A DNA stretch of 64,000 nt from Paraspadella gotoi (GCA_051294375.1 CM119263.1:12441723-12505722); one strand, 5' to 3'. Counted from the stretch's first letter, positions 10,801 to 61,000 are shown. Numbers and translations: made by a program. The notes: generated by a model from the letters alone, not told the origin.

Positions 10801-13800
10801 TACGTAGAGAAGTTCATAATCACCAAGTTAAATCTTGTAAAGGTTAAAATTTTAAAAAAAAATTAAAAAACAAAAAAATAAAAAGTTTATTAACATAATG
10901 TCTTCCTCTCCAGGAAATCTTAAATTTTCGGAAATTCTTCAAGGATTTTCTTGGATGGAAAAAAGACGGGAATGACCCAACAACTGCTTCAAAAGTGAAT
11001 GCGTGTCGTGTTGCCAGCCAGTTCGTGGGCCTGGATGGAAAATAGAAAAGTTTCTTGGAGGACACTGCAATTGCGAGAAGGGCACGGGAGTCCTTGTTTG
11101 CTGTGACGCCGTGAGATCGATTTTTCTTTTCATGGGTTTAGATTCGACAAAGTATTGCCCTAAATTACGACACTGCAAAGTGTTTAATATGGCCAGCAGT
11201 GGTATGAATAAAAAATTTCAAAACTTTTTAAATTTAGATGATAGAACAATTTAATTATTCAAATGTAGGAGCTTGTGTTGAAATTGAGACGAGGCCATAG
11301 GGAAAGCGGCTCATGTGGTGGCCCTGTCCTTCCACCATAGTTATTACTCATAATCCTGACAAATCCAGGGGGATATTTGCAGGGAATTGATATGCATCGA
11401 CGCGGGCGGGGAAAAAAACACCCCACCCCAAAGCAAAGAAGTTTTAACTTGAAAACTTGATTTTTTTTTTGTCCCATAAAACTTTTTGTTATGAACGATC
11501 AATAATTATTTTAATTTTTAAAATTTGTCTTTGCCATTTTTTCTTGTAACAATTAAATTATTAAAAGGTATTGAATCTGTGATCTCAATTTTTTCGTTTT
11601 TAGGGAAAAGTTCAAGCCAATAACTTAACTTATCGGTTTAATATATTATTAAAAAATGCCTAATAACTGTTTGAGGTTGTTTTAAATTAGATTAAATATG
11701 TTCGGGTAACTTTTAAGTATAACCAAATAATTCAAATTTCATTCTTAATTTATAATTATCTGAAAATTTTTTTTGAAAAACTCAGAGAATCGTTAAAAAC
11801 AATTATTTTGATTGACCGTAGCAACTTTAAGCTCTGGGAAATGGCGAGATATTTAAGAAAAAAATGTACTTAAAAATGCTTTTATGTTTGTATAGCTCCT
11901 AAATACGAAAAGAATGGACACCCTTTTTCCGTAACTCTATGACAATTATTCAGCGGAAAAAAAATTTCTTAAAAGGATATCGTCGTAATCGCATAAGAAA
12001 AATCTGGATTGACGACAAATTTTGATACTGTGGCAGCAAGACTTAAAGCTGCCTCACTGCTGTCCGTCCTCAGCCTCGTCTCAATGGCTGAGCAGGCTAA
12101 ATCATCTCATTCCATCCGTGCGTCCCGGGTTCATCCCTGGGTATCCGGTTCTGGCTTAAATGTGACGGTGCCGGTATAAACATGCCAGTGACAGGAGGCG
12201 GTCACTGAGGGTCCGCAGCCCCTACGCCAGTTGGTGAATACCCCGCGCCCCGGGTATCACAGGCTATCCTCCCGTTGCCATAAGTGGTGAGCCCTACTCT
12301 CGAACACGCAACTGCTGCGCACCGTGCGCTCATGCTTACGTCGCTTAGGGTATGCATATCACGCCTATGCCCTACTTCTCTGGTAACGCTCCAGACTCGC
12401 TCGCCCGCTCGCTTCACTATGGCAATGAGATCAAAACCTTCTCTCAGACATCTCCTCAGGATTGAGGCCCCTGTGGAGAAGTCTGGTGGGGGATCCTGTG
12501 GCAGCAAGACTTAAAGCTGCCTCACTGCTGTCCGTCCTCAGCCTCGTCTCAATGGCTGAGCAGGCTAAATCATCTCATTCCATCCGTGCGTCACGGGTTC
12601 AATCCCTGGGTCTCGCCGGTTCTGGCTTAAATGTGACGGTGCCGGTATAAACATGCCAGTGACAGGAGGCGGTCACTGAGGGTCCGCAGCCCCTACGCCA
12701 GTTGTGTGAGATACCCCGCGCCCCGGGTATCACAGGCTATCCTCCCGTTGCCATAATACTAAAAATAATCAAATTTGAGCAAAGAAAATTAATTTATAAA
12801 CAGAAAGAAAAAGAAAAAAACAATAAACAAAGAAAGAATAGAAAGGAAAGAAAGAATAGAAAGGAAAGAAAGAATAGAAAGGAAAGAAAGAATAGAAAGG
12901 AAAGAAAGAATAGAAAGAAAAGAAAGAAAAATAAAAAGAGTAACGAGAAGAAAGAACGATGTTGCGATAACAAAATGATAACATGCACGAATGCGATGCC
13001 TAATTTTACGAGTTCAATCCCAATTCAATTTTTTTAATAAAAACGCAGAGAGAGAGAAGCCAAATCGTTTTTGGACGAATCAGCAGGAGAAAGAGAGAAA
13101 AAGAAAGAAAGCCCCTGCAGTGCCCAAGGAATCAGCGACTGGGGAAGGAGAGAGAGCTACATATAAGAGAAAAGAGAGAGAGAGAGAAAGAGACATAAAA
13201 ATAAAAGTAGAGCAAAATTGTTTATTTTGATAAACGTAAACAAAACGTATTTAATAAACGTCCTAACACAATTTCAAGGACCTCGATGATGAGAAGCTGT
13301 ATATAAATTTTCAGCTTCATATACCCAAATTTAATCTTCAAAAAGGCGATCTATAAATTAGAACGCCGACGACGACGACACTTATGTTCAAAAGCGTTAC
13401 GAGATCGTAGCAATCGCTTTGCGTTTGCGAGGATAACAAAAAACAAGAACGCTCTTTCCAATGTGTCGCAGTAACTTTCTTACTTATTTCCATGTGATTA
13501 CATTATAATATAATTATAAAACATATAACTTATCTGCAGTTTTAACTAAAATGACTAATTATTATACAAAATATATATTATTTTTTAATACATAACCGTA
13601 GTTTTACGAAATAACGTGACTAAATAAGTAAAACATTAATAAATGCTTTTTGTACGTTTCTTATTAATTTATTAAATATAAATTAAAATTTAATATTTTA
13701 TGAATAATATAGTATAAATTTTTAGTTTATATACATACTAAAAATACCTTTTTACTAAATATAAATTTAATAAAATATTATTAAAATTATAAACATTTAA

Positions 13801-16859: not shown

Positions 16860-18971
16860 TCATTTTTCCTCCAAAATTCGGTCAACGTAATGGTAGAGCA
16901 CAAACTCTCCGATTTTTTTTCCGTCTTTATCGTAATGGTACATCAGTAGACATTTGTCGCAGTAGAAGCAAGGATCGTCAGGGTCTCTCGGAGAGTCAGA
17001 CGTCATCCATGCGGCGGTGAAAGTATTACATGCCCTGCAGGGAATTCGCACCGGACGCAAGTGGTTGACGACGACGGGGTATCGAGATCGGTCGAAACAG
17101 TCGTCGGCGTGCAAAAGTCGGGCATCAGTGAATACAAACAAATGTTCGCAGTTTCCCTAAAATATAAGAATATAGACACTATCAGCTACGAAAAAATTAG
17201 ACAACAAAAAATGCAGACATAAGACTTCGCAGTGCTAAACTTAAAAAAAATCATATGCTTTTGACAACATTAACGTATCTTTCCCCCCTCAAGGAATTTG
17301 TTTCCTTCCAGGTTTTTTTTTTATATGAATAAAACCCCTCAACTCGCCTGATGAATGTAGACGTAAGGTTGACCTAAACGGATGGTGAGATCAATAAACC
17401 GAGTTTCGGTCATGTCGGCCTTCTTGAAATCGTTCATTTTCTTTCGCTTCGCCCAATCAATGATGTTTTGGCTGTAATCGATCGAAGTAACAGCGCGAAA
17501 GTCATTGTAGAAAGTTTCTTCAATAAAGAAACAACCCGAGGGGTAGAGGTCGCGATTGTGATGATCCTTGGGAAGGTTAGGATCCGACGAAAAATCACCA
17601 GGACACACATAATCGATTTGACACTGAAACCGATCGCGAAGTTCGTGGAGGTACTGTATTAAAACAAGCAGTTAAAAATAACCGGAGACCACGAATGAGT
17701 ACCTAAAAGTATAACATCAATAACCCACCTGTGTGGACAAGACGTTGTACGAACTGTCGGTCCTCATCTTGTGAAAGAAGTTGTCGCTGGTTTTCTTTTG
17801 GCGAAACTTAAAATTTCTGTATAAAGGAAGACAGGAAGTGAAAACTCCGAACGCTTAACTCCGCCTTCAAAATGCATTCATTTAAACCTTAACATGGTGA
17901 CAGTAAGAACGACCTCCGGAGCTTCCACGCGGTTCTCAAGTTCCTCTGGAAGTGGCAGCGATGAGAAATAATTGTATAACTTGGAATCTGGGTACCGAGT
18001 CATACCGCTCCAATTCTGAGAAAAATATATACATAAATATATACCCAGAGCAGCGAAACATTATTTATGAGCCGCCTACAAGGACTTACGAATTTATCCT
18101 TAAGTTTTTTCCGGCTTTTCAGTTTAAGAAACTGCGACGTCTTAAGATTGTTTTCCGGAATTTCCTGTAGCCAGTCCATTTGCTCGTGGTACATGTCATC
18201 ACCACCTAGTGATTTGTCACCCGTCACTGCTGTTAATTCTTCTAAGACATCGTCCGAAATTCCAGTCTTACGCTGTTGTTGACAGAAGTTGTTAGTGACA
18301 GAAATTGTTAGTGACAGAACCGTTCAATATAAGCAGTCCCTGAGTTTCGGATCAGGCTGTAACACCGTGTTACAGGCGGGTTAAGCGCCCCGTCCCTCTT
18401 AACTGCAAGGCTATTACCGGGCTAGAACCCCGGACCTTTGGGTTGGGAGGCGAATGACTTGCTTCCGGCACCAATGGCCGCTGAATAACGGTTGGTGGAT
18501 TTAAGTCCTCCATAGTAGTATTGGTGATTAACATCGTTTTATGAGGAAAACGCATATTATTTTTATTTGAGCAATATATTTCGGTTAACATCGCTTAACC
18601 ATAGTTCATTTGCGTTCATTAAGCGATGTTAACCGAAATATATTGCTCAAATAAAAATAATATGCGTTTTCCTCATAAAACGATGTTAATCACCAATACT
18701 ATGTACTCATACCGCATATACGATGACTCTCAAGCAATCCATAGTAGTATGAAATCTGATGCAAAACAGGCATCAACATCATTCAAAAAATCATAAAAAC
18801 ACATCCAACCTGAATGTAGGCCTCTTCGGTCTCCTCTACTATCTTGGTGGGAAGAAAAGCTTCTGAATCCGTTGTTCCCATTTGGAATCCCCAGTCGGAC
18901 ATAATGTCTTTAATATTGACAGGATCCGATATTCCGACGAAAACGCAATCGTCAGTTTTCGACAACGCCAT
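16860..18971 (-). CDS. SNAPC3: snRNA-activating protein complex subunit 3 (SNAP50)
   Basis: DLYPSGCFFIEETFYNDFR..DYSQNIIDWA..RFIDLTIRLGQPYVYIHQ|GNCEHLFVFTD..CRAC..PDDPCFYCDKCLLMYHYDKDGKK (zf-SNAP50_C-like); the ATG at 18971 is inferred. Confidence 0.9.
18290..18510 (-). mobile_element. Diverged tRNA-head plus twister-like element (solo-LTR or SINE relic) in SNAPC3 intron 1
   Basis: Minus strand: GACTTAAA (shared with the LTR 5' part), A-box-like TGGTGCCGGAAG, B box GGTTCTAGCCC, a degenerate P5-twister fold at 18406-18333, then TTCTGTCACTAACAA tandem units. Confidence 0.6.
18516..18701. repeat. Perfect 83-bp inverted repeat with 20-bp spacer
   Basis: Arms 18516-18598 and 18619-18701 are exact reverse complements. 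Confidence 0.95.
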
Positions 18972-30900: not shown

Positions 30901-33900
30901 TCACTTGCGGAGCTTAAAGTTCCCTTGCTAATACGAATATTTCCGAAGAATTCGGTTCGACTGGATTTCGGGTTTTACGATATTGACTCTTGAAAAGTTT
31001 GTTTGTTAATTCCTAAAAAATATTGTCAAAACAGCAAGATATCTCGTTAGGTTAAAAAAAAAATCTAGCTCACGCACGAACCACAGCGTCGGTGTGGTAG
31101 GCCGTCCACAACTTGAAGAGAAGTATTCCGCCCGGCTTGAGAAAGTGACGCGCGAGGGAAAAAGCGGATTTTGTTGCCAAGGTGACAAGATTGAACTGTT
31201 GTAATCGTGGTTTTCTCTAGTGTCAATCGCCGGGTGGCTGTTGGAGCTCATCTTAAAAGCATAAGGATCGTCGCAATTGCATAAGAAAAATCTGGATTGA
31301 CGACAAATTTTGATACTAAAAAAAATCAATTTAAAAAAAAAAAATTTATAAACAAAAAAGAAAAAGAAAAACCAAGTGGATCAATAATAATAATAATATT
31401 AAAAATTTTACCCGATAAAGCAATTAGGCATTCTGAAAAAAAAGTCAAACAAAAACAAGCAACTATTTAATATATATAGTACCTGCGAATACTTCTTTGT
31501 TCCTCCCGCTCCGGGAGCCTCCGTAGCATTGCAGCGCGTAACGCGTAGAATAGTGTTTGGCCGGATTTCATCGTTGTCAACGACTTGATTGTAAGTACTG
31601 TTCAGCATCGCGCTGGAAAGGTTGATAAAAAATATTGACGCTATGAAAAAAGCCCTCAATGTTTTTCTGTTAAGAAACAGAATACATACAGAATGCTTCT
31701 ACTTATATTATATTATAAACTTATGCTCGCCCGTTTTATCGATCAGAAAATCGTTTTCGACCAAATTACTGATCCAAATGCAATGAAATTTCGTATAACG
31801 TATCGTATTGGCTATAGAAATTGGAATATCGAGGAGATTTTTAAAATTCCACCAAAAGCCGAGATATGGGCTCCGAAGTTGTCAGCATGGCGGAAAGTGG
31901 CATAATTTAAAAAAAAAGGGGAAAAAATCCAGTTGGAACAGTTGCAGGAATGTTTGCTTGCTCATAAAAAAATATTTTAGCTTTATTTGCATGTCATGTC
32001 AGCTTTCATGTGGCGAGCAAAAATTCGAGGTAAAATGATGGATCATGCATGTTTCAAGAAAAAAATTCCTACAGTTAATAAAAATTGGTTTTTTAAAGAG
32101 CTTTCTTTTTTTTTACAAACGTTTGAACGTAAATGATCAAGAAAAAAAATTTTCGTTAATTTTATGCCCCTATGGCCCTGTATCTCGGCTCAGGGGTAAA
32201 CAAAAAAAGAGTCGATAATCCCATTTGGTTTAATAGTTGGACGAGAAGTCATTCTCGATCAACAAACTCGGGAGAACATTTTCTAATATTAACTTATGTA
32301 TTTGACTTAGCCACAATATTATATAATATATATATCCTACTTAGAAGAAGAGTGAACGCCGTCATGCATAAGAACTCTGTATCTGCCATTGACGTTCTTG
32401 CAGGCTGTAACTTGGATGACGAATTCACGACCGTCATAGTTGCCAGTACACAACTCCGCGACAATGCCTGGAGTCAATCGCGGTTCCATCAGTCTTACAA
32501 AAGAAAATTTAAAGCAAACGAACTGAGCAAAAATAGAAAACATAACAATACAAATAATCAAAAACTTTATAATTATATGTCGACTTTTTCTATGAGCGAG
32601 GGAGAATCTTCAATGATTTTACTGCTTTCTTGCGTATCGTCAAGGGGTTCCGGGTCTTGCCAATTCGTTGCTCACCAGCTACATCTACAGCTACAGTCTC
32701 GTCTATCTCGATGGGAATGTGAGCGATCAGATCATTCCGAATCGATTCTGGGGTCTTCGACATTATCTCTCGCTTTTTCCTCTTTTCTAGTCTCACTCTC
32801 TTGTCAAACTCTTTTCGTTTGACTAAATCACTAAGAAGGGTCTCGTCGTCTTCTGGCAATTCCGTTTTCCTAGTTCGTTTTTTCGTCTTCACTCCTCTTT
32901 CGATCCTCTCTGATCTACGCTCAAAGGTCCCTCCGAGTCGTTTGGCGCTTGATACCCGACGATGCAGTCATCAATTACGTCGCGAGATAGAAGAACGAAG
33001 AAGGCGGGAAGAACATCATTTCTTAGTTGGTTAACAGGCTCGGTAGTGGCCTGGTTAACTTGATAAAGGTCCCGAACCAGCTTCTTCGTCAACTCGGCAC
33101 AGGCGATCACTTTAGATACAGCGTCGCCACGTCCTTTCCAAAGGATTTGGTGAACCGATGAATCGGCCAGGCGATTCACCGCATACTAAAAATAATTTTT
33201 GTATAAAATTATATGAAATCCTTGGACAAGAAAGAAAAATTTTCCACCTAATAATTCGACAACCGAATATTACGTGAATTCGAGTTCTTGCCTTGACTAG
33301 GGATTTGACATTACTCTTTTCCTTGACGTTCATAACGAGGGCGTTGGGGCTGAGACATTCTACGGGAGTTAACATCTCCGTCATGGCATTTCACTGGTTA
33401 AACGGATTGAAAATAAAAAACTAGAGAAGCTACTTGATTAAATAAAACGGGTCTAATAATTCGTTCTATATCTCCATAACCTAAACAACAATAGGATTTA
33501 CATTCGTAACTTAGCTAGAAACTGCTAAAATTGAATTTTTAATTAATGTTTACAATTTTTACATATTTGTAGAGCAGAGGAGCACGTTTTTCATCGACCC
33601 CATAATGGATGAGCAATCTCAATAAAACTTATCGGGGAAGAAAAGCGGTAAAATTTCATAAAACAAGATCCATCCATCCATTGTGTTGCGCCGCAGTGAC
33701 TTTATTTCATGTGTATTTCTCGTAACATGACATGAGGCGATATGACTACAACTTCCTTAGCCTGTATATTTATGACACGCACTGCCTAGAAATTCCGTCT
33801 TTTATTCTTTAAAGTTTTAGGATTTCCTAAAGGGGGCGCTAGCAGTCCCTTAGATTTGAAGTTTTTTTCTGTCTTAACAAATGAACATCAATAAACAAAT

Positions 33901-36863
33901 TATGTGCATTTTTAACGTTAGTGGGACAGACCGACGAACAGACATACCGACCGACAAGTAATTTATAGAGTTGCTCCGCTAGTACTCGCGGCGCAACTAA
34001 AAAAATTTAAGATGAAACTACAAGATTTTGGAATATAACCAATTCTGTAAGAAAAGTTAGTTCTTCAATTCACGTCTAAATTGACTTCGTGTATTATTTC
34101 GATGGTTAGCAGATTAGCAAATTTGAGGAGATAGTATTGGAGGAATGTGTTGTCTAGTTAAGTAACAAAAATGCGTCGTTACTTAACGCCGAATTCTGAA
34201 AACAGCACAATACATACATTTACCATTTGTAAAAAGAATGGAAGCTAATGATTTTAACAAATGATGTATCTGAAAAAAACAAGTGATCCATTTTTCAATT
34301 ATTTCGTCAGATCTGGTCTTACGCCAACGGCTTTTGGAATAAAAACCTTGGCGTACTATTATTCAGCAACTTATCTAAAATGACTAGATATCTCCGAATG
34401 CATAAAATTAATCTGGTTTACAATCCTAAAATGATATGACCGCGTTATTGATTTTAAAAGTTTCTTTTCGTACATTATTCACTTGACCTAATTAAAATCG
34501 AAATCTTCCAAGGGATTTCAAAATTTCTAGAAAGGATCGCCGAGATATGACACTCAAAAAAAATTAACGAGTGTTCCCACAACACTAAAATTCCAGCGTG
34601 CTCATTTCGATTTTTTGTTTTTGATCTGCTGTTGGTCGGCTTCCGGCAAATCATCATATTCCTTCTTTTTGAGGTTCTTGAGCGAGACGTTGGCCGAACG
34701 CAGACCTGTTTTCTTCTTGCTCGAAAATTCTACGCTGTACTCTCGACGACGCCGGAGATGAAAAGTGATAAAGGTCCACATCAGCTTCGCCTAAAAATTA
34801 GAAAAAGTAGTAAACCAGTTAGAATCTTGTGGAGTTCTTCACAATAAAAAATAAAACCCAAAAATACCTGCATCAGACAAATAGCCGTTAGGCAGTTGAT
34901 CCTAATAATTTGAATGTTGTAATTTCCTTCGGCCGTGTTAAGCGTTCCGGCGCTCGGGGACAGCGGGAGCCCATACCAAAAAGTGAGGATAGCCAGAGTG
35001 AAAGACAGAAACCGCGCAATGACGAAGAGGGTGTTGTACCCATAAAAGACGAACTTGGCGACCGTGGGCTGCTCAGCAAAATACAGGAGTCGCCCGACGT
35101 GGCGAAACGCCTCAACCAAATATTGGGAGAGCAACAGGCAGAGCGTGATCCGAGAGAAGTTAAGAGCGTAACCCACTACGGTAAAGATCAGGTAGAAAGC
35201 GGCGTATTGCACTCGGGAAGACAATTCGTCCTTCTTCACTTTCTGGAAGTAAAGTTCTGGGAAACAGTGCAGCCAGTAGGCGAATTTGAATGATGAAGAA
35301 GAACTTGGATACGAAAGGCATGGAGACGTGCTCGGTAGGGTAGCCAACCCAAAGATTAGACAGGTCCCAAACGAGATGCTCCGACAACATGATGTCTACA
35401 CCCCAAACGATAGAAACCAAGTAAAAGACAATCAACTGTCCGGATTCGTTAAATTTGGAATGCTTCAGTTTGGAAAGGTGCATCCGGCGGTTGATTTTAT
35501 CTGCAGCAAAGGAGGAAAAGTTAGTAACTGTGCAAAAAAAAAGGGCGCCACTTTATAACTTTAAATTCCAAACACTAAAAAAATATTTTTTTAAATTATA
35601 GAAAAAATAAATTTTAAAAAAAATTTATGTATATATTATATACATAAATTTTTTTTAAATTTATTTTTTCTATAATTTAAAAAAATATTTTTTTTAGTGT
35701 TTGGAATTTAAAGTTATATAAACTATTACTATCCTTCCGGTATATATATATATATTATATATATTTTTATATTGGTTGTACCAATTTCATAAAAGTCAGC
35801 TCCTTGTATTTTGATGCTAGTGCGGAGTACAATAAGTATTCCCCGATCTAATACTTAAGGGAGTGGTTCTTTTCATACAATTGAAACATTCTTTGAAATA
35901 TTTTCACTTCATTGATAGGAAGCCAGGTACTCTGGGAGTGAATAAATGGGACTGTGAGAGAGTCTTGGTTGAAAAGCTTGCAGGGACCTGCTATGTAATT
36001 ATCTTGTAAAGTGATGGAGGCCTTAAACCACCAAAAGCCTGTCCAAAGTCAGGGGCAAGATAGCTTATTTATTAAATGAATGGATAATTTTTATTTTGGT
36101 TGTACCAATTTCATATATATATATTTTATTTTTAATCTATTACGCCACTTATGCGCAAAAGTGTTACAATATCGTCGCAAACACTTAGCGATTGCGACGA
36201 GAAAAACTTCTTCAGAAATTTACCCTCTGAGGAAAATGTTTATAACTTAGCAACTATCCTAGCTAGAATGTTACGAATTGATGGGAAAAAAGTCAAATAT
36301 ATTTTTATTAGTACAAAAAAATTTTACAAACCGAATGCTCTTCGTTTCGATTATATTACAAGTTTTTTCGTATCACTCCAGGTTGAAGTCCCTATATAAA
36401 CTAGAGAAAACCTCCCTAAGACTAAGTATTGAAAATCTTGACACACAAATTGTGTGTCACAATACCTCCACTTCCCACTTCCGAGGTCGTTGACCTTCTT
36501 GTTACATTTTTCCTGGTTGCACGCTGGGTAGAGCGCGTTGTCTTTTTTCGTGAACACAACGCTTGCTTTAACAGAGTAGTAATCAGGTTTCTCTCCACGG
36601 CCAAGTTTTTCTAGAGTCGTCTGCTTGAAGCACTTCCAGTTAGAACCGATATCGCCGTCTTTGCGTGAGGAGCCCGTCGACAAAGAAGAGAAATCTTGGG
36701 CGTGAACTCCTTCGTTCTCCCACCAACCTCTTAAATTAAAAACGCAAGAATGAACAAGAGTAATACAATTTACTTCATCATACACGTACGTGCATACCTA
36801 CATACATAATACATATTGCACTTTTATTATTAGAGTTAAAACAGGGACAAAATTAGCGATGTT

Positions 36864-36902
<39 letters not shown>

Positions 36903-39767
36903 ATTTTTGCAAACAAATATTTAATAATATAATATATTTGAATTTGGTCGCTAACCCTAATTGAATCAAATATGAAACAACTTTAAAATTAAAATAAAAA
37001 TTAACTTTTAAAATAAAATAATAACTTTAGGTTAACCAACCTAATGATATAAATTTTAAAAAAGAATAACAGTTTTTAAATCAACTTATTAGAAGCTATA
37101 CAAATCTGCCATATAAAATAATATAATATAATAAAATAAAATATTTAAAAATTCAGTTTTTTTAGGATAAAGGGCAGTTTTAAAACCATGCACTTTATAA
37201 ATATTCGGCCTTGAAAACTAGCCCTCACAATTGAAAAACTCACGACGGGTTTGCAAATGGCAGTTTCTTTCTAGCGGCGGGTTTTAAATTGTCACCATGT
37301 ACTTTATGTACGAGAGTATTTAAGAATAAGTTGAATATATTGTTCACACACCAATTTAAAGAAATAATTTTCTGGATCAGCAGAGGTTTCTAAACTACAT
37401 AGAAAATATTACTTAACAACCTGAGTTGGTTAACTTCGTCTATCTCTGGATCATCTAGGAACAACTTGGAACTTTGAAGGGTCGACAAATTCTTGCCTTG
37501 AAAATCACCAATCCTGACGCCGCGCGCAGCCAAAACTACAGAACGGTTAAGCTCCGACGGAAAGTCAATTGCCTAGTTTAAGTAGAAAAAAGAGGCCATA
37601 ACTGAAAATATTATATCCTAAATAATCGAAGGAACGAAAATTTAACAAAATTAAATGACAAACTAGTATTGGTATAATTGTATGAAACAAACTTACCTGC
37701 TGTCCCCAAAGTGTAAGGCTGACCATCTTTTTACTGCGGTCAACGATCTGTAAATCACGCTTCGTCAATTCACGCGAATCTTTTCGTGAGATTAAAGTTG
37801 CGACTTCTCCGCAAAGCTTGACAACACCTAATACATGCATAAATAAGATGTCAGCCCACTATAGGTTCAACAAAATTATAAATCCTAATAAGTTTCCAAT
37901 TACCCACGACATCGATGACCTCTCCAACATCGATGGTCTCTATTTCGGAAATGCTCCGGAAATCGAAACGAATTTTAGGTAAGTCTCGATCGTCTTCGCA
38001 TAACTCGACAATCGACTCCCGCTGAAGGGTCAATTCGTATTGGGCATCCGTTTTGTTGAAGCTAAAACGATTGCCGTTACAGAACGAGTAAAGTAAAGAC
38101 CAGAATCCGAGCTTTCCTTTCAATTCTCACCGAGAGTCCTTGGGTTTGAGCGTTCCTTTTTGAATGTAGTAGACCTTTCCCTCTTTAATAACGTCAAAAA
38201 ATTTAGTGCATTCCTCTTTGAAGGCGGTAACCTTCATTGTACTCGACTCATCTTGTATCTCAAAGGAAAAGAGCGTTCCTTCGCCCCGGGCGTTGCTCCA
38301 AGTTCTCTTGTCGTTCTTTACGACGACCCGAGCTTTGATCATCCATTTGTTCTGATATGGATTCAGCGCTTTGATGGGATGAACGTTAGGACGAGCGTGA
38401 CCATTGTTGTTTTCTTTGGATGGTCTGGGAGGCGGCGGTTTAGCTGCGGTGTTAGTTGTCCGCGGGGCCATATAGTCGGAGCGGGGAGCGACAGGTTCCC
38501 TGGCCGATGGATTAGCCGGTGTTGACGATGCATTATCGGCGGAATCTGCAAATTTTGTCGGATTTCCGATGCGAGATTCACATTGCTTTAAGATCTCCAC
38601 CTCGACGAGTACTGCGGGGCGGGCAGAGGAAAAAAGAAAAAGAAAAACCAAGTGGATCAATAATAATAATAATATTAAAAATTTTACCCGATAAAGCAAT
38701 TAGGCATTCTGAAAAAAAAGTCAAACAAAAACAAGCAACTATTTAATATATATAGTACCTGCGAAATACTTCTTTGTTCCTCCCGCTCCGGGAGCCTCCG
38801 TAGCATTGCAGCGCGTAACGCGTAGAATAGTGTTTGGCCGGATTTCATCGTTGTCAACGACTTGATTGTAAGTACTGTTCAGCATCGCGCTGGAAAGGTT
38901 GATAAAAAATATTGACGCTATGAAAAAAGCCCTCAATGTTTTTCTGTTAAGAAACAGAATACATACAGAATGCTTCTACTTATATTATATTATAAACTTA
39001 TGCTCGCCCGTTTTATCGATCAGAAAATCGTTTTCGACCAAATTACTGATCCAAATGCAATGAAATTTCGTATAACGTATCGTATTGGCTATAGAAATTG
39101 GAATATCGAGGAGATTTTTAAAATTCCACCAAAAGCCGAGATATGGGCTCCGAAGTTGTCAGCATGGCGGAAAGTGGCATAATTTAAAAAAAAGGGGAAA
39201 AAATCCCAGTTGGAACAGTTGCAGGAATGTTTGCTTGCTCATAAAAAATATTTTAGCTTTATTTGCATGTCATGTCAGCTTTCATGTGGCGAGCAAAAAT
39301 TCGAGGTAAAATGATGGATCATGCATGTTTCAAGAAAAAAAATTCCTACAGTTAATAAAAATTGGTTTTTAAAGAGCTTTCTTTTTTTTTTACAAACGTT
39401 TGAACGTAAATGATCAAGAAAAAAAATTTTCGTTAATTTTATGCCCCTATGGCCCTGTATCTCGGCTCAGGGGTAAAACAAAAAAAGAGTCGATAATCCC
39501 ATTTGGTTTAATAGTTGGACGAGAAGTCATTCTCGATCAACAAACTCGGGAGAACATTTTCTAATATTAACTTATGTATTTGACTTAGCCACAATATTAT
39601 ATAATATATATATCCTACTTAGAAGAAGAGTGAACGCCGTCATGCATAAGAACTCTGTATCTGCCATTGACGTTCTTGCAGGCTGTAACTTGGATGACGA
39701 ATTCACGACCGTCATAGTTGCCAGTACACAACTCCGCGACAATGCCTGGAGTCAATCGCGGTTCCAT
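27980..39767 (-). CDS. RPA1: Replication protein A 70 kDa subunit (~10 exons; 8-kb intron at ~28497-36473)
   Basis: MEPRLTPG..RYRVLMHDG; HPIKALNPYQNKWMIKARV..WSNARGEGTLFSFEIQDES; LTKRDLQIVDRS..LTLWG; YPACNQEKCNKKV..WR|CEKC; VNLADFSDNCWATLF; ETYNDEARLK; TGA at 27980. Confidence 0.93.
29370..31250 (+). repeat. Insertion-riddled copy of ~25190-26886 (DNLZ intron and exon 1, MRM2 3' end)
   Basis: Colinear with the source but peppered with 1-2-bp insertions; DNLZ frame broken (ORF 30505-30753). Confidence 0.9.
32573..33384 (-). pseudogene. Frameshifted duplicate of the RPP25/Alba gene within the duplicated block
   Basis: Near-identical to 39851-40665, but the ORF is split (32889-33179, 32590-32892) by single-base indels; may be consensus error. 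Confidence 0.5.
34602..35502 (-). pseudogene. Partial duplicate of TRAM1 3' exons (no 5' exons, 1-bp insertion near 35283)
   Basis: Near-identical to 41883-42782; the reading frame is split into ORFs 35160-35483 and 34781-35347. Confidence 0.5.
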
Positions 39768-39850
39768 CAGTCTTACAAAAGAAAATTTAAAGCAAACGAA
39801 CTGAGCAAAAATAGAAAACATAACAATACAAATAATCAAAAACTTTATAA

Positions 39851-40665
39851 TTATATGTCGACTTTTTCTATGAGCGAGGGAGAATCTTCAATGATTTTAC
39901 TGCTTTCTTGCGTATCGTCAAGGGGTTCCGGGGTCTTGCCAATTCGTTGCTCACCAGCTACATCTACAGCTACAGTCTCGTCTATCTCGATGGGAATGTG
40001 AGCGATCAGATCATTCCGAATCGATTCTGGGGTCTTCGACATTATCTCTCGCTTTTTCCTCTTTTCTAGTCTCACTCTCTTGTCAAACTCTTTTCGTTTG
40101 ACTAAATCACTAAGAAGGGTCTCGTCGTCTTCTGGCAATTCCGTTTTCCTAGTTCGTTTTTTCGTCTTCACTCCTCTTTCGATCCTCTCTGATCTACGCT
40201 CAAAGAGTCCCTCCGAGTCGTTTGGCGCTTGATACCCGACGATGCAGTCATCAATTACGTCGCGAGATAGAAGAACGAAGAAGGCGGGAAGAACATCATT
40301 TCTTAGTTGGTTAACAGGCTCGGTAGTGGCCTGGTTAACTTGATAAAGGTCCCGAACCAGCTTCTTCGTCAACTCGGCACAGGCGATCACTTTAGATACA
40401 GCGTCGCCACGTCCTTTCCAAAGGATTTGGTGAACCGATGAATCGGCCAGGCGATTCACCGCATACTAAAAATAATTTTTTGTATAAAATTATATGAAAT
40501 CCTTGGACAAGAAAGAAAAATTTTCCACCTAATAATTCGACAACCGAATATTACGTGAATTCGAGTTCTTGCCTTGACTAGGGATTTGACATTACTCTTT
40601 TCCTTGACGTTCATAACGAGGGCGTTGGGGCTGAGACATTCTACGGGAGTTAACATCTCCGTCAT
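39851..40665 (-). CDS. RPP25: Alba-domain RNase P/MRP subunit p25-like protein
   Basis: MNVKEKSNVKSLVK|YAVNRL..ILWKGRGDAVSKVIACAELTKK..LYQV..LPAFFVLLSRD..GYQAP (Alba/Rpp25 pattern) with a basic/acidic tail. Confidence 0.8.
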
Positions 40666-41882
40666 GGCATTTCACTGGTTAAACGGATTGAAAATAAAAA
40701 ACTAGAGAAGCTACTTGATTAAATAAAACGGGTCTAATAATTCGTTCTATATCTCCATAACCTAAACAACAATAGGATTTACATTCGTAACTTAGCTAGA
40801 AACTGCTAAAATTGAATTTTTAATTAATGTTTACAATTTTTACATATTTGTAGAGCAGAGGAGCACGTTTTTCATCGACCCCATAATGGATGAGCAATCT
40901 CAATAAAACTTATCGGGGAAGAAAAGCGGTAAAATTTCATAAAACAAGATCCATCCATCCATTGTGTTGCGCCGCAGTGACTTTATTTTCATGTGTATTT
41001 CTCGTAACATGACATGAGGCGATATGACTACAACTTCCTTAGCCTGTATATTTATGACACGCACTGCCTAGAAATTCCGTCTTTTATTCTTTAAAGTTTT
41101 AGGATTTCCTAAAGGGGGCGCTAGCAGTCCCTTAGATTTGAAGTTTTTTTCTGTCTTAACAAATGAACATCAATAAACAAATTATGTGCATTTTTAACGT
41201 TAGTGGGACAGACCGACGAACAGACATACCGACCGACAAGTAATTTATAGAGTTGCTCCGCTAGTACTCGCGGCGCAACTAAAAAAATTTAAGATGAAAC
41301 TACAAGATTTTGGAATATAACCAATTCTGTAAGAAAAGTTAGTTCTTCAATTCACGTCTAAATTGACTTCGTGTATTATTTCGATGGTTAGCAGATTAGC
41401 AAATTTGAGGAGATAGTATTGGAGGAATGTGTTGTCTAGTTAAGTAACAAAAATGCGTCGTTACTTAACGCCGAATTCTGAAAACAGCACAATACATACA
41501 TTTACCATTTGTAAAAAGAATGGAAGCTAATGATTTTAACAATGATGTATCTGAAAAAACAAGTGATCCATTTTTCAATTATTTCGTCAGATCTGGTCTT
41601 ACGCCAACGGCTTTTGGAATAAAAACCTTGGCGTACTATTATTCAGCAACTTATCTAAAATGACTAGATATCTCCGAATGCATAAAATTAATCTGGTTTA
41701 CAATCCTAAAATGATATGACCGCGTTATTGATTTTAAAAGTTTCTTTTCGTACATTATTCACTTGACCTAATTAAAATCGAAATCTTCCAAGGGATTTCA
41801 AAATTTCTAGAAAGGATCGCCGAGATATGACACTCAAAAAAAATTAACGAGTGTTCACCACAACACTAAAATTCCAGCGTGC

Positions 41883-44904
<3,022 letters not shown>

Positions 44905-55000: not shown

Positions 55001-58000
55001 AAAACTATTTTGAAATTTTGACATTATATAAGGGTAGTACTATATACAAAATAAGCTGACTGGGCTACTATATTTATAAAAAAAGAAAAATAACTATAGA
55101 TTAGTATTCATTAATATAATAGTTTTCAAGATATAACTGCTAAATTTTGATTCCAAACTTTCACTTCACCCTACTGGACAGGCTATATTCTTGGTTATAG
55201 CCTCCATCCTTCTTACAGCATGCAAACTTTCAACTCACTGAGTACCTGGCTTCTCAATAAATGAAATGAAATATTATTTTCATTCTATTGTACAAAAGGA
55301 CCACTCCTTTTTAATGTTGTTTTAAGTTTGATATTACATTTTTTAAATAATCAAGTTTGTAACCCATTAAAGACTCCCAAGATAACAATAAACAGTAATG
55401 AAAAGAGATAACTTTACCCCACCTCTCAAAAAACTCTTCCACAGAGATGCCTTGACGATTAGTCACGTGGAGAGGGTAAAAGACTTCTAAAATTTTACTG
55501 GAATGTGCAAGGGTGAGCTTGAGGTCTCTGGCGGGCATTCTTATCTTTTCTTTGACAACGTCGTCCAGACCCAATTGTAATTTCTTTTTTCGACTCTCGA
55601 TCTTCGCGTGAAGTTGCATGTTCAATTTTCTGAATTAAAAAAAAAATTCAAAATTGAGTTTATGAAAAAGATACAATACAATACCAAAACAAATACCATA
55701 TTTATTATGTAAGGTATATGTAAAAGGCTGGTTTCATAGGGCGACAGAGGTAGTAGGCTGGTTCAGATACTATCTAGGAAAAAAGTATATAACATAATTA
55801 AATTTATTCAATAAAAAGTATACAAAATATGGGTAAAACATTTTCAATATTTGGTATGCCTTTCCTCGGCATCAACTACTGCCTACATTTGTCTGGGTAT
55901 GCTCTCATATAGCAAATTGAGGTATGACAGTGAAATATTTTTCAACATCTTTAACACAATTCTTTTCAAACCCAATATTGATGTTACATGTTTTTACATT
56001 TTTAAAAGGTATAATAGCATTTTTTTGAACCAAAAAGAGGTATAAAGGCTTTAGCATTGCCAAATTAAAAAAATAACTTTATTTAAAATAAAAATAAATA
56101 ACTAAAAATAAAAATTAAATATAATTTTTTTCGCCATTTTTTATTTGAAGTAACAATATTTTTTAGCCTGTAACTTCTAAACGATTTGACCGACAAAAAA
56201 ATAGAAGGAAGCTACTGAAAACAAATTCAATATAAATCCGGAAATATTCTAATTTTTTTAAAATCAAACAAGTTTTCGAATAGATATCTTTTATTAAAAA
56301 TGTTATATACTTTTTTCCTAGATAGTAGTTCAGAGCTATGGCCTAGTAGCAGCATAATTGTTTCTACACGATAACTTCAGGTCTCGAACCAGGAACGCAT
56401 GGTGCTGTTGCGCTGCGAAAATTACAGCCTTAATACTTTTGCATTGAAATATCCACCAGAACGTAATACATGTATATATAATATAGAGTTACATTTAATA
56501 TTATGTACCATCTAAGCAAAAGAATATAACGAATAAGTGAGGATAACTTTGAAAAAATTATTTGTTTAAAAAAAAAATTTAATTACATTAAATTAAACTA
56601 TATCTTAATTTCAAATTAACTTTACTTTTTTTTGGTCAAAGAGTTATAATGATAACTTGATAATCAAAGAAAGGTACTTGGATATTACAAAAAGTATCAA
56701 AAAAAAAAAAAAAAATAACAATTCTAAAAAAAAAAATTACCAGAAGAGTATTTAGCCTGATGTCCAATTCTCCTCTTCCTTTTCTTCTTCTTTCCTCCTC
56801 CTCCTGCCCCTCAGTATATTTTGTCTAGCGATACATTCTCTCGTTTCTACTCTTCGCGAAATATACCATTATTTTCCCTCCATTTCTTCACACCTTCAAT
56901 ACCCCTCAAGATTACATAAAATAAAAGTTAAAAAAAATAAAAATTTATAATTATTATTGTCTCTTCGGAGGCGTGGATTCAAATCTCACGGCTGATACCA
57001 CAGGGATTTCTCGGCGATTCTTATGAAAACAGACAAAATAGACAGTTGTGGCAGCAAGACTTAAACCTGCCTCACTGCTGTCCGTCCTCAGCCTCGTCTC
57101 AATGGCTGAGCAGGCTACATCATCTCATTCCATCCGTGCGTCCGGGTTCAATCCCTGGGTATCCCGGTTCTGGCTTAAATGTGACGGTGCCGGTATAAAC
57201 ATGCCAGTGACAGGAGGCGGTCACTGAGGGTCCGCAGCCCCTACGCCAGTTGGTGAGATACCCGCGCCCCGGGTATCACAGGCTATCCTCCCGTTGCCAT
57301 AAGTGGTGAGTCCTACTCTCGAACACGCAACCGCTGCGCACCGTGCGCCCACGCTTACGTCGCTTAGGGTATGCATATCACGCCTATGCCCTACTTCTCT
57401 GGTAACGCTCCAGACTCGCTCGCTCGCTCGCCGCTCGCTCTCACTATGGCAATGAGATCAAAACCTTCTCTCAGACATCTCCTCAGGATTGAGGCCCCTG
57501 TGGAGAAGTCTGGTGGGGGATCCTGTGGCAGCAAGACTTAAAGCTGCCTCACTGCTGTCCGTCCTCAGCCTCGTCTCAATGGCTGAGCAGGCTAAATCAT
57601 CTCATTCCATCCATGCGTCCCGGGTTCAATCCCTGGGTATCCGGTTCTGGCTTAAATGTGACGGTGCCGGTATAAACATGCCAGTGACAGGAGGCGGTCA
57701 CTGAGGGTCCGCAGCCCCTACGCCAGTTGGTGAGATACCCCGCGCCCCGGGTATCACAGGCTATCCTCCCGTTGCCATACAGTGTCAATTTTGAGGCAGA
57801 GTGAAATCAGACAGAAACGTTGGCTATTTAGTATTTATACAATTTGAATCGGATCCGAGGTAAGAGCATTCTCCGCAGGCAGATGGAAGCCAGTGCCATC
57901 ATTGGCCGGTGTCATTGGTGGTTCGACCAATGAGAGAGTCGTTTATTAAACTTCTTATTTTGCTCATATTTTCTGAACGGTTTCCGCTAAGAGCGTAGGA

Positions 58001-61000
58001 GTATGACACAACGTGAGGTAGCTCATAAAAATATTTAATATATATGTACAGGATTTAAAAAATTACAATTTTTTTAATGAAATAATTTTTGGGTAAAATG
58101 CCTCACTTTTGTTAATATGGTGATACGCTTTTTGCTTAGATGGTAATTTTATTGCAATCACGAACCTAGCTTCATCCTCGAGTTGGCTGTAAACACCCTC
58201 CTTTTTCAAATTTGCGCAGAAAGGATCAAAGACCTGGGTGACGAAGTTGATAAGCTCTTGCTGGGGGGCGTTAATTAGAGACTCCGTCTCCGTCTTGTAA
58301 GCCATTAGTTCGTCCATTTCCAGCCTAGATTCGAACGCTGCCAACGCCTTTGAAAAAGAATTAACAGGTGCAGTAGTTTAAGGGGAAAGTAGATTGCGAA
58401 AGGCTTAAAAAATAACCTGTTCCGGAGTAATTTGGTAAAAGAAATTAGAGGCAAGTCCGGGACCTTCAGTTCTTCGAGCAACGAACGAATCAGCGGAAGG
58501 AACGCGACCGAACCTTTTGATCACTGCACAGAAATTTAAGGTTGGATATTGGATAATAAGAATAACACATTTTTCCGATTACCGAATCTTACCCAAATGA
58601 AATAAGAGAGTGTCCCAAAGAGCCCTGATTCCCCTCCGGCAGAGGGCAAAAACAGCGAGCGTGATGGAAGCCAGCGGACAAAGGAGAGAGCCGACGATCA
58701 AGGCGAGCAAAGGCTGCAATATAATCGATAGTAATCTTTAAATAAATAATGATAAATAATGTATAATATAATATATATATAAGATAATGATACTCAAAAA
58801 ATATATTATAATAATTAATCCTTAATAGCCCCAAAAATTATCCATTCCCCCGCTTTTTGTTCGTCCTTGTAGATATTATGAGTTTCTCATTAATGATTTT
58901 CCAACAGGAATGATGTACAATATCTATTAGAAAACTGGAACAAAGTAATCTAACCTTGTGTAGAAACTGTAGATGCACCGTCTATTTCCAGAAGACAACA
59001 CTAACTACCCCAAGTCCCCATCCCAAACAGATAAATAATATGATAAATAATAGTTATTTTTAAATCTAAAAAAATAAAGAGAGTGAAACAAGTAATTTTG
59101 CAACTTTAATAATGATAAGTAAATGAAATATTCACGCTTTCATCACCTGAACAACACCAAGGGCTACACCATGCCACAACAACGCTTCGAATACGATGAA
59201 CCAACGATTTCGATCCTCGGATGGAGAATCGATGTCGTATACGAAGACGGAAAACAACGACGTCGCTAACGTAACTAAAAAAATTAAAGCGAGTCTGGCA
59301 TCATGGCGATATTTAATTCGTTTAAAATAAAATTATATAAATGGATCCCAGCACCTACCTATTGGGACCCAGATGGGTGCGGTCATGGCTAAGCAACTAG
59401 ATAACAAGCAGGTCAATAAGCAAGCTAAAGGATACAACAATAGCAAAAAGAATGTGCCGAAGGCGCCTTTGAGGACAAAGTTCCAAGTCCGGTTCAAGTG
59501 TCGAGAAAAACCTGCAAATTTTTTTATTTTCTCTCAGGATCGGCAACAACACTTGCAGAGTAAATTAACAAAAAGTAAATTGTTGATAATTTATTATAAA
59601 ATTTGAACCTTATAAACATATGAAACGAGTTCCTACCTTTTCCAAGAAAGCCCGAATCGCTTTCCGCCTCAAACTGATCTCGAGCAAGTTTAACGTGCAT
59701 CCAGAGAGCGTGCAGCCGCGAAACGAGCGTGTGCGTGCGCGACCTCAATTTTGGGCAGACCCCGCCATTCACGGGATTAAGGTCGTAATCTGGATTGGAA
59801 ATGAACTTTTACGCATTTATTACCATATTAAATTCAAATTTTTAAGATAAACCGACCTGGAATGAAAGGATGGTTCGAACAAAGAGCACGCAGGGAGAGG
59901 GGAGACAGCCAGGGAATGACGACAGCGAAAAAATAAATTGCGTCGATGGTTAAGGTCCAAGTTCTCATCATGAAGCATGTCCATCGCCAAAGAGGATACT
60001 TAGTTGATGAATTGAGGATATGGTGTCGACTTAGTGAGTACTAATGGTAATAATATTATAGTACTATGTGCAATTGTTTGGAACGAAATCATAATGCAAA
60101 TACCTGAGATTGCGAGAGGCCGGGATTATGACTAAAATCTTCGTCGGCAAGAGGAGTGTCAAGAACTGTCGTAGGAATTATTTCCGGTCTTCCTGCGAAC
60201 GTCCGGGTAACAACCCAGTCTGAGGGAAACCAGATTCGACGTTTCCACACGAATGAACGAGTAGGGTGTTGCACTGTGAGGGGATGATTGATAACTACCA
60301 CTTGTCTCACAATTATTATAAAATATAATAATATATAGGGAAATTTATTAAATTTTTCTATTTATTTTTTGAGAATTGACAAAGTTTTTGTTTGCAACGA
60401 ATTTTATTTATAGTTGAACAGACATGTTTCGACTTGTTTTACAAGCCTTCATCCGCGTTTTGACAGATTGGTTTGAAATTTGTACATAAGAAGAGAGAGA
60501 GAGAGAGAGAGAATAGGGTAAAAGTTTTCCAACAAAGTGGTGAGACAGAATAGTGGTCAGATGAGAGGACAGGTCAAGGTGAGGACAGATTGAATAAGTT
60601 GTGAAAAAGAAGTGAAACTTAGAGAGCGAGAGAGAGAACAGGGATAAATAAATAATAAATGATACATTGTGCAATGTACAACAAAGATAAATGGTTTGAA
60701 ACTAAAATTAGTGAAATTTAACAATTGTCTAATGGATAAATAATTAACTAAGGGATAGAAAGTGAAAAATGAAATGAAATTTGTGAAAAATGAAATATGA
60801 GAATTTTTAAGAGTTAAGTAAATGATTAAAATGAAATTTAAGGAGTAAGAAAGAGCTCAAAATGAGCTGGCCCCCCTTGGTTTATGCAAATGAAGGGCAT
60901 GGACGATGGTGACGGGTCATTGGCGCGTCAGTGGCTGAGAGGAGAGTGCGACTGAACCGGTAAATTCTGTACCGGGGATTGTACCAGGCGGAAAACTTCC

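Follow-up and report, generated by a model that had tools for sequence, protein, structure and literature searches.

Retrozymes with long terminal repeats (LTRs), in the passages that treat them in PMC4918200, PMC7761336 and PMC6765202, are plant elements in which each LTR carries a type III hammerhead ribozyme; they have a Met-type primer-binding site (PBS), a polypurine tract (PPT), a 4-bp target-site duplication (TSD), a unit of 600-1000 nt and no open reading frame (ORF), the double cut leaves no R region, and the circle is predicted to keep the ribozyme blocked. Reverse transcription round that circle is proposed, in the relevant part of PMC4918200, to rebuild the two LTRs. Metazoan retrozymes, by the account in a passage of PMC7761336, have no LTRs, PBS or PPT, and the same source refers to work in preparation on insect elements that have type III hammerheads. 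Here we analyze a 64,000-nt stretch of one strand of the Paraspadella gotoi assembly (GCA_051294375.1 CM119263.1:12441723-12505722; hereafter the window, with positions counted from its first letter), which contains two young copies (12029-12755 and 57047-57779) of a non-coding LTR element that carries a circularly permuted, P5-type twister ribozyme motif in each of its LTRs.

The element shares with the plant LTR retrozymes a ribozyme motif per LTR, PBS and PPT, the 4-bp TSD and the lack of an ORF, as well as, by prediction, a double cut that leaves no R region and a ribozyme that is blocked in the circle. It differs from them in having a twister in place of the hammerhead, a Trp-like rather than a Met PBS, a unit of 471-477 nt and an animal host, and in adding tRNA-type RNA polymerase III (Pol III) promoter boxes and a predicted dimer gate. 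The putative self-cleaving motif occupies equivalent positions in the two LTRs, giving the layout of an LTR retrozyme; however, no hammerhead core was found inside the element, and without one it is not in the retrozyme family as defined. By analogy, it would work like an LTR retrozyme.

Among animal systems, the Penelope-like hammerheads and the non-LTR retrozymes, as covered in passages of PMC6765202, PMC7761336 and bioRxiv 10.64898/2026.07.22.740005, share with the element a short palindromic stem and, as predicted for the element, the need for two tandem copies and the formation of circles from tandem ribozymes, but they are hammerheads of non-LTR elements and have no PBS, PPT or 4-bp TSD. 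The twister T-variants of Perere-3 in Schistosoma (PMC8501958, in part) resemble it as twisters in an animal retroelement, and the SINE-like Sm-alpha hammerhead repeats (PMC6765202, in part) as a promoter followed by a ribozyme; both are non-LTR systems with a single 5'-end cut or tandem repeats and no LTR pair. The initial annotation of this stretch knew of no animal LTR element with twisters. In line with this, neither an animal LTR retrozyme nor a twister in a true LTR was found by full-text searches or in passages of PMC7761336, PMC4918200, PMC6765202, PMC11722881, PMC8501958 and bioRxiv 10.64898/2026.07.22.740005 (with Repbase, Dfam and subscription journals outside this scope), whereas the backbone itself belongs to a class already described, Helenus.

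The reading that we favor, to which we assign a probability of about 0.5 on the basis of folding models and comparison, is that Pol III read-through, pairing of the LTRs, a double cut, a 471- or 477-nt monomer, a circle and Gypsy-type reverse transcription would form a single replication chain.

The twister motif

All four LTRs contain an identical stretch, as had been claimed, though it extends over 89 nt (12145-12233) and not 80 nt. In copy 1 the P5-permuted motif, identified by descriptor, folding and covariance models, occupies 12151-12230 on the plus strand of the 5' LTR and 12622-12701 of the 3' LTR; in copy 2, also on the plus strand, the motifs are at 57170-57249 and 57647-57726. In the 5' LTR of copy 1 (all plus strand) the helices are P5 (12151-55/12226-30), P2 (12160-63/12180-83), P3 (12186-92/12201-07) and P4 (12208-11/12220-23), the pseudoknots are T1 (12166-68/12213-15) and T2 (12184-85/12218-19), and G12164 takes the general-base position with A12165 adjoining it. 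Every twister pair named in the initial annotation is present and Watson-Crick (four in P2, seven in P3, four in P4, CCG:CGG in T1 and GC:GC in T2), and a 5-bp P5 stem comes in addition to these. The predicted cut sites, all on the plus strand, fall at 12177/12178 and 12648/12649 in the 5' and 3' LTRs of copy 1 and at 57196/57197 and 57673/57674 in copy 2, and their recomputed spacing of 471 nt and 477 nt, respectively, agrees with the values first given.

The order of P2, P3, P4, T1 and T2 is that of the P5 permutation, with both pseudoknots present. In common with the type-P5 twister (RF02684; PMC5113685; PMC5408937, in part), the element has the order P2'-GA-T1'-P1-UAA-P2-GC-P3-P4-L4-P4', both pseudoknots and the catalytic G and A positions; it differs from that type in a palindromic P1 in place of an 8-bp hairpin, the presence of P3 and P5, C for A at position 28, and a score under the Rfam threshold. 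The swapped T1 (CCG:CGG) and A28C are the two departures of the motif from the canonical twister, with the equivalents of G13, G30, A46 and G48, the cut site and the general-base position all kept. In a mutational scan of the rice twister those same four bases are the positions intolerant of any change; C27G by itself has a relative activity of 0.13, the double change C27G+G47C one of 0.86, and A28C one of 1.00 (PMC5113685; values from its matrix, with columns counted by hand). In that scan each of the two departures, taken singly, is of a tolerated kind. The same CCG:CGG T1 is found in the phage twisters L019 (47.9 bits) and L087 (43.5 bits), which pass the Rfam twister-P5 cut-off of 37.6 bits. 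As a side observation, phage P5-type twisters with this T1 number at least six (L019, L072, L087, L095, L101 and L115), with 2/2 of those scanned passing the cut-off. Among the matches listed in the pattern scans, none of the natural P5 twisters had C at position 28.

It is very unlikely that the resemblance is due to chance or that the motif is a catalytically dead fold in an ordinary terminal-repeat retrotransposon in miniature (TRIM). A strict, helix-aware descriptor matched none of 20,000 dinucleotide shuffles of the 471-nt unit on both strands, a loose version matched 1 of 5,000, and in the window the descriptor picks out the four LTR sites only (128 kb, counting both strands); this descriptor was composed after the sequence had been seen, with position 28 left free. 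Less dependent on the element itself is the covariance model R2, built from five canonical phage P5 twisters selected without reference to the variant found here, in which the four LTR sites rank first at 21.6 bits (E 0.0015) with the next match at 8.7 bits. A second model, R1, of eight phage twisters, three of which were retrieved with a pattern derived from this element, gives them 31.7 bits (E 1e-5) with the next match at 15.4 bits; the E-values of both models are rough. The reference twisters came from pattern scans followed by a descriptor filter and then a check against Rfam. Among the matches listed, the full descriptor was found in 6/120, 8/48, 0/120 viral and 0/120 prokaryote loci, and in the Rfam check of eight phage twisters 6/8 passed Twister-P5 and 2/8 were of the P1 type, the latter two (L153 and L166) being excluded from both R1 and R2.

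What favors a chance or dead fold is that Rfam does not recognize the motif. The scan with the Rfam twister models proposed in the initial annotation went against the twister assignment: there was no gathering-level match (the cut-off for twister-P5, RF02684, being 37.6 bits), the P5 model gave no match at E 10, the best match was a partial twister-P1 with 14.2 bits and E 1.1 against a cut-off of 67.2, and the region 12000-12800 likewise contained no gathering-level twister. Further, the folding energy of the 80-nt core is on a par with that of shuffles (z -0.37), and P1 is unable to form a hairpin. Against these stand the result with the shuffles and the independently built model, the tolerance of the substitutions in the published scan, and the spontaneous formation of the dimer fold in prediction (see below). 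On balance, the twister is very probably a real and active motif, as judged from models. As regards the earlier interpretation as a twister LTR retrozyme, the ribozyme assignment, the predicted cut sites and the retrozyme-like layout are backed computationally by the descriptor, the models and the published tolerance, with cleavage, circularisation and mobilisation in trans as predictions, whereas the Helenus class of the element and the predicted need for pairing had been missed.

Some minor results of these scans may be recorded here. The Rfam matches to ZFAT-AS1_3 and sR1 were judged to be chance. Two of the phage loci each have two back-to-back twister-P1 matches below the gathering score (L153:40-139 and L166:20-119). 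The second-best match of both twister models in the window, at 18335-18436, is probably also due to chance (E 0.062 with R1 and 1.8 with R2); it adjoins a perfect 83-nt inverted repeat with a 20-nt spacer at 18516-18701.

The palindromic P1 and the predicted two-copy fold

The P1 segment (12169-12176, plus strand) is an 8-nt self-complementary sequence whose predicted partner is its twin at 12640-12647 in the other LTR. As a hairpin it would have only two pairs and a free energy of +5.0 kcal/mol, and so is not viable, whereas the duplex between two copies reaches -10.9 kcal/mol. In one twister P1 is dispensable (PMC5408937, in part). In a single core the probability of P2 is 0.00-0.01 and the twister fold lies 6.5 kcal/mol above the minimum free energy (MFE), as compared with a P2 probability of 0.76-0.98 and a gap of 2.5-4.0 kcal/mol in five phage control twisters. 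When two 80-nt cores are co-folded without constraint, P5, P2, a long P1, P3 and P4 appear in both, while the loop of T1 and T2 stays open. Folding of the entire two-LTR transcript predicts that each LTR pairs its 5' half with the other LTR's 3' half in a fully nested arrangement, which beats two separate folds by 13.3 kcal/mol in copy 1 and 11.6 kcal/mol in copy 2, and the swapped P1/P2 pairs have a probability of about 0.3 in the unconstrained transcript.

In a control that sampled 600 of the 1,680 permutations of the P1 segment, 25 dimerise as well as the native order, and 152 show P2 and P4 in the monomer, which the native order does not. The dimer gate is therefore suggestive in this model (about p 0.04), and the ribozyme is predicted to need the pairing of both LTR copies, a requirement that the initial annotation did not anticipate. 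An in vitro construct with a single ribozyme may yield a false negative. Dimer-dependent hammerheads with palindromic stems have been described for Penelope-like elements (PMC6765202, in part), and no natural twister dimer was found by title or abstract in a literature search.

Element layout, promoter boxes and the Helenus class

The general layout put forward initially (a non-coding element with two LTRs of about 255 bp, PBS, PPT and a 4-bp TSD at two sites) holds, with LTRs measured at 254-259 bp. Copy 1 is 727 bp long, with LTRs of 254 and 259 bp, an internal part of 214 bp and the TSD ATAC, and copy 2 (plus strand) is 733 bp long, with LTRs of 255 and 256 bp (57047-57301 and 57524-57779), an internal part of 222 bp and the TSD CAGT. 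The two copies are 96.6% identical and have a GC content of 57-58% as against 36% for the window; their longest Met-started frames are of 60 aa and 56 aa, respectively, with no long frame in either. Between the two LTRs of one copy there are 2-3 substitutions, besides 3-5 gap columns, so the insertions are recent. The small indels cluster at short runs (12128-12145 and 12233-12245) that flank the identical ribozyme block, and some of them may be sequencing errors. Both copies (2/2) have a 4-bp TSD, different at each site.

In copy 1 the TSD is at 12025-12028 on the left and 12756-12759 on the right. Two contigs of the public sequencing run X1 join 12024 to 12756, as expected of an empty site, and are 731 nt shorter (727 + 4), which supports the ends TG..TA. 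Ends of the form TG..CA had to be given up, and the corresponding alternative with a 6-bp TSD was rejected, as the TA is missing from the empty site in that run. On the plus strand, the 5' LTR (12029-12282, 254 bp, TG..TA) has a 9-nt terminal inverted match with two mismatches. It is followed by the 214-bp internal region (12283-12496), non-coding by frame scan, which contains a tRNA-Trp-like PBS (12285-12297) and a PPT-like purine-rich tract (12475-12493) whose closing G5A run is separated from the 3' LTR (12497-12755) by 3 nt. The first 13 nt of the PBS were compared by hand with the complement of the honeybee tRNA-Trp terminus in Kojima's Fig. S2 (PMC10886601, in part) and match at 11 positions. 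The PPT-like tract is G-rich and imperfect, with three pyrimidines plus one T. Copy 1 sits inside a dispersed repeat (11960-12028), of which other copies lie near 539, 25071, 31251 and 43433.

Each LTR has a B box 43 nt beyond the A box and upstream of the ribozyme. In the 5' LTR of copy 1 the tRNA-like A box (12085-12096, plus strand) conforms to TRGCY and ends in AGG rather than YGG, and the B box (12128-12137, with GGTTC) lies in a T-arm-like hairpin that folds (12124-12141, plus strand); in the 3' LTR the boxes are at 12553-64 and 12596-606. The B box of the 5' LTR of copy 1 is one A short, while those of the other three LTRs are intact, and the missing A is present in 1694/1703 depth units of run X9. 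A pair of A and B boxes occurs in 39 of 20,000 shuffles. A functional tRNA in the LTR was rejected, with no tRNA called by ARAGORN.

Helenus (TRIMp3) is characterized in part of PMC10886601 by two LTRs, a length of 311-1263 bp, an A box of the form TRGCY/YGG, a B box with GGTTC and, in animals, a 4-bp TSD, and is listed from six phyla; Pol III transcription is putative there, and multiple origins are proposed. By its length, non-coding nature, A and B boxes, PBS, PPT and 4-bp TSD, the element is to be placed in this class on sequence features, an affiliation overlooked at first. With Helenus it shares being a short non-coding TRIM with these features and with boxes in each LTR, as well as the inferred Gypsy helper, and with Helenus-2_SyJa in particular a Trp-type PBS; it differs from Helenus in the ribozyme motif in the LTR and the TG..TA ends. 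By eye, neither a likeness to the listed Helenus families nor a twister was seen in the published consensus sequences (7/11 supplement parts). In PMC10886601 the word "twister" occurs 0 times and "hammerhead" only in a reference.

A separate observation concerns two wasp families of that study, Helenus-2_SyJa and Helenus-2_SyUm, which are Trp-primed, as this element appears to be (11/13 nt). Inspection of their LTRs by eye (DataS1.fa) shows a complete type III hammerhead directly 3' of the B box, with a GUC site, three stems, the CUGAUGA and GAAA core and complementary loops. A literature search for hammerhead and Synergus returned PMC10886601 alone, which leaves the hammerhead unremarked. These families are candidate animal LTR retrozymes, on sequence, that are already in print.

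The ribozyme follows directly on the 3' side of the B box, at a place where a T-run is seen by eye in many Helenus LTRs. This raises the alternative that an active twister takes over the part of a Pol III terminator by forming 3' ends in a leaky way. The templates would then be linear, with circles as by-products or absent, and RNAs cut only at the 3' ribozyme would keep about 100 nt of terminal redundancy (from the Pol III start to 12177). This would accord with Cassandra, for which a start in the 5' LTR, an end in the 3' LTR and a short redundancy are described, and with the attenuation of the fold in one copy, which would slow cutting. However, there is no basis for cutting at the 3' site only, because the two ribozymes share one sequence and work jointly in the predicted active form; by simple arithmetic, under independent and equal cutting the class cut only at the 3' site would be at most a quarter. 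We regard this alternative as decidedly unlikely. The absence of a T4 terminator was set aside as evidence, because 18,031/20,000 shuffles also have no T4.

The proposed replication cycle and the family

According to the favored reading, Pol III would start near 12075 and read through both LTRs, after which the two ribozyme copies would swap halves and pair via the palindromic P1, and both cores would cut to release a 471- or 477-nt monomer without terminal redundancy. The monomer would close into a circle, with ligation by RtcB as the putative chemistry. A Gypsy-type helper would then reverse-transcribe the circle from the PBS and integrate the product, with the two LTRs rebuilt. One swapped core equals the very ribozyme that would span the junction of the circle, so the cut ends are predicted to lie close together. 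As the double cut leaves no terminal redundancy, it is a circle that would allow both LTRs to be rebuilt, an argument taken from part of PMC4918200, and the Gypsy helper is suggested by the 4-bp TSD together with Kojima's PBS comparisons (PMC10886601, in part). The predicted circle has an MFE z of -2.4 for copy 1 and -2.3 for copy 2 (with 0/60 and 2/60 shuffles as good) and is 62-63% paired, as compared with the above 70% cited in the plant retrozyme paper. At its junction, P2 has a probability of 0.0 and a 5-bp hairpin across the junction one of 0.5-0.6; the ribozyme is predicted by the model to be blocked in the circle, as in the single copy.

Parts of the element were found in assembled contigs of 13/17 public runs, none of them recorded as RNA (though X9 and X10 are presumed to be so), and the contigs point to a multi-copy family with both near-identical and diverged members. 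The summed depth over the core in run X4 is about 5-7 x 10^5, as against 76-97 for the long diverged contigs, which suggests a high-copy family, the summed depth not being a copy number; run X8 has only three contigs of the element. Variants were tabulated from the contigs of 8/17 runs, in tables that are filtered and unlinked. In X4, A12176 of the outer P1 pair is the sole position of a 106-nt stretch to vary at 1% or more, and of the eight variant rows listed, all but one P3 mismatch lie in P1, at the cut-site U or in the P3 loop, or result in G-U pairs. Near-identical contigs of low depth also turn up in organisms B, C and D and in a biofilm metagenome; these may stem from carry-over and are left out of the host range. 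An exact 25-nt scan of metagenome contigs gave 0 matches.

These data bear on a further alternative, in which a real twister, captured from a Penelope-like element, an RTE or a SINE, is a mere passenger. The element would then move as a normal Helenus TRIM by way of uncut read-through RNA, and the motif would be intact through youth. In line with this, the copies are very recent, no ribozyme is visible by eye in most Helenus families, T1 is altered in some diverged contigs, and RTE-type elements in Schistosoma are headed by twisters (PMC8501958, in part). However, the motif has kept every helix, the two pseudoknots and the palindrome at once, none of the eight listed variant rows hits a catalytic or T1/T2 position, and in the wasp Helenus-2 the corresponding slot is taken by another class of ribozyme (by eye). 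Additionally, an active ribozyme that is put to no use should be lost, because cutting at both sites would ruin the template unless ligation followed. Taken together, these points render the passenger explanation unlikely.

Several observations, in addition to the Rfam results above, weigh against the proposed cycle. The triple change that combines the T1 swap with A28C is absent from the measurements of PMC5113685. A diverged contig of run X11 alters G12167, an intolerant position, along with G12168 and T12169, and T12169A is common in X1 (15,191/174,651 depth) with no partner change listed; the variant tables, being filtered and unlinked, do not speak for or against covariation within the family. 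Even the swapped fold lies 8.0-9.9 kcal/mol above the MFE, with pseudoknot energy outside the model, and 215 of the 600 P1 permutations also give P2 and P4 in the dimer MFE, which makes this a modest control. In the predicted circle the first eight PBS bases are paired. No helper element lies within the 64-kb window, and conventional strand transfer could suffice for the replication of uncut read-through RNA.

More broadly, and only as a tentative proposal that we place somewhat short of even odds, animals may have true LTR retrozymes. Pol III TRIMs would have recruited a ribozyme behind their tRNA-like head more than once, as a twister here and as the hammerhead of Helenus-2, and the twister here would act as a two-copy switch that fires only with both LTRs in one transcript, releasing a unit-length circle that is integrated by a Gypsy helper. 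If true, this would break the two rules that LTR retrozymes are of plants and use hammerheads and that animal retrozymes are without LTRs, PBS and PPT. It would make the ribozyme class interchangeable, link retrozymes to Pol III TRIMs, and provide a biological role for the P5 twister. A natural twister dimer with swapped halves, able to sense whether a two-LTR transcript is complete, would be a new control device. With a unit of 470 nt, the inferred circle-to-DNA step of retrozymes would become directly testable via the switch points of LTR alleles.

The window is otherwise compact and gene-rich. Database matches of the TRAM protein point to an invertebrate animal as host, the best of them at 61-71% and those from molluscs, chelicerates, myriapods and annelids at no more than 59%. 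A Penelope-like fragment with inverted arms of 137 and 127 nt lies at 60368-61861; it contains a 234-aa frame on the minus strand (60917-61621) that resembles a GIY-YIG tail by eye and has no Pfam match, and a minimal hammerhead core at 61774-61802. Further, a tandem duplication of about 31488-35700 and 38765-43000, with a 7.28-kb spacing and 99-100% identity, spans genes for RPA-like OB-fold, Alba and TRAM proteins and represents either a recent duplication or an assembly artefact.

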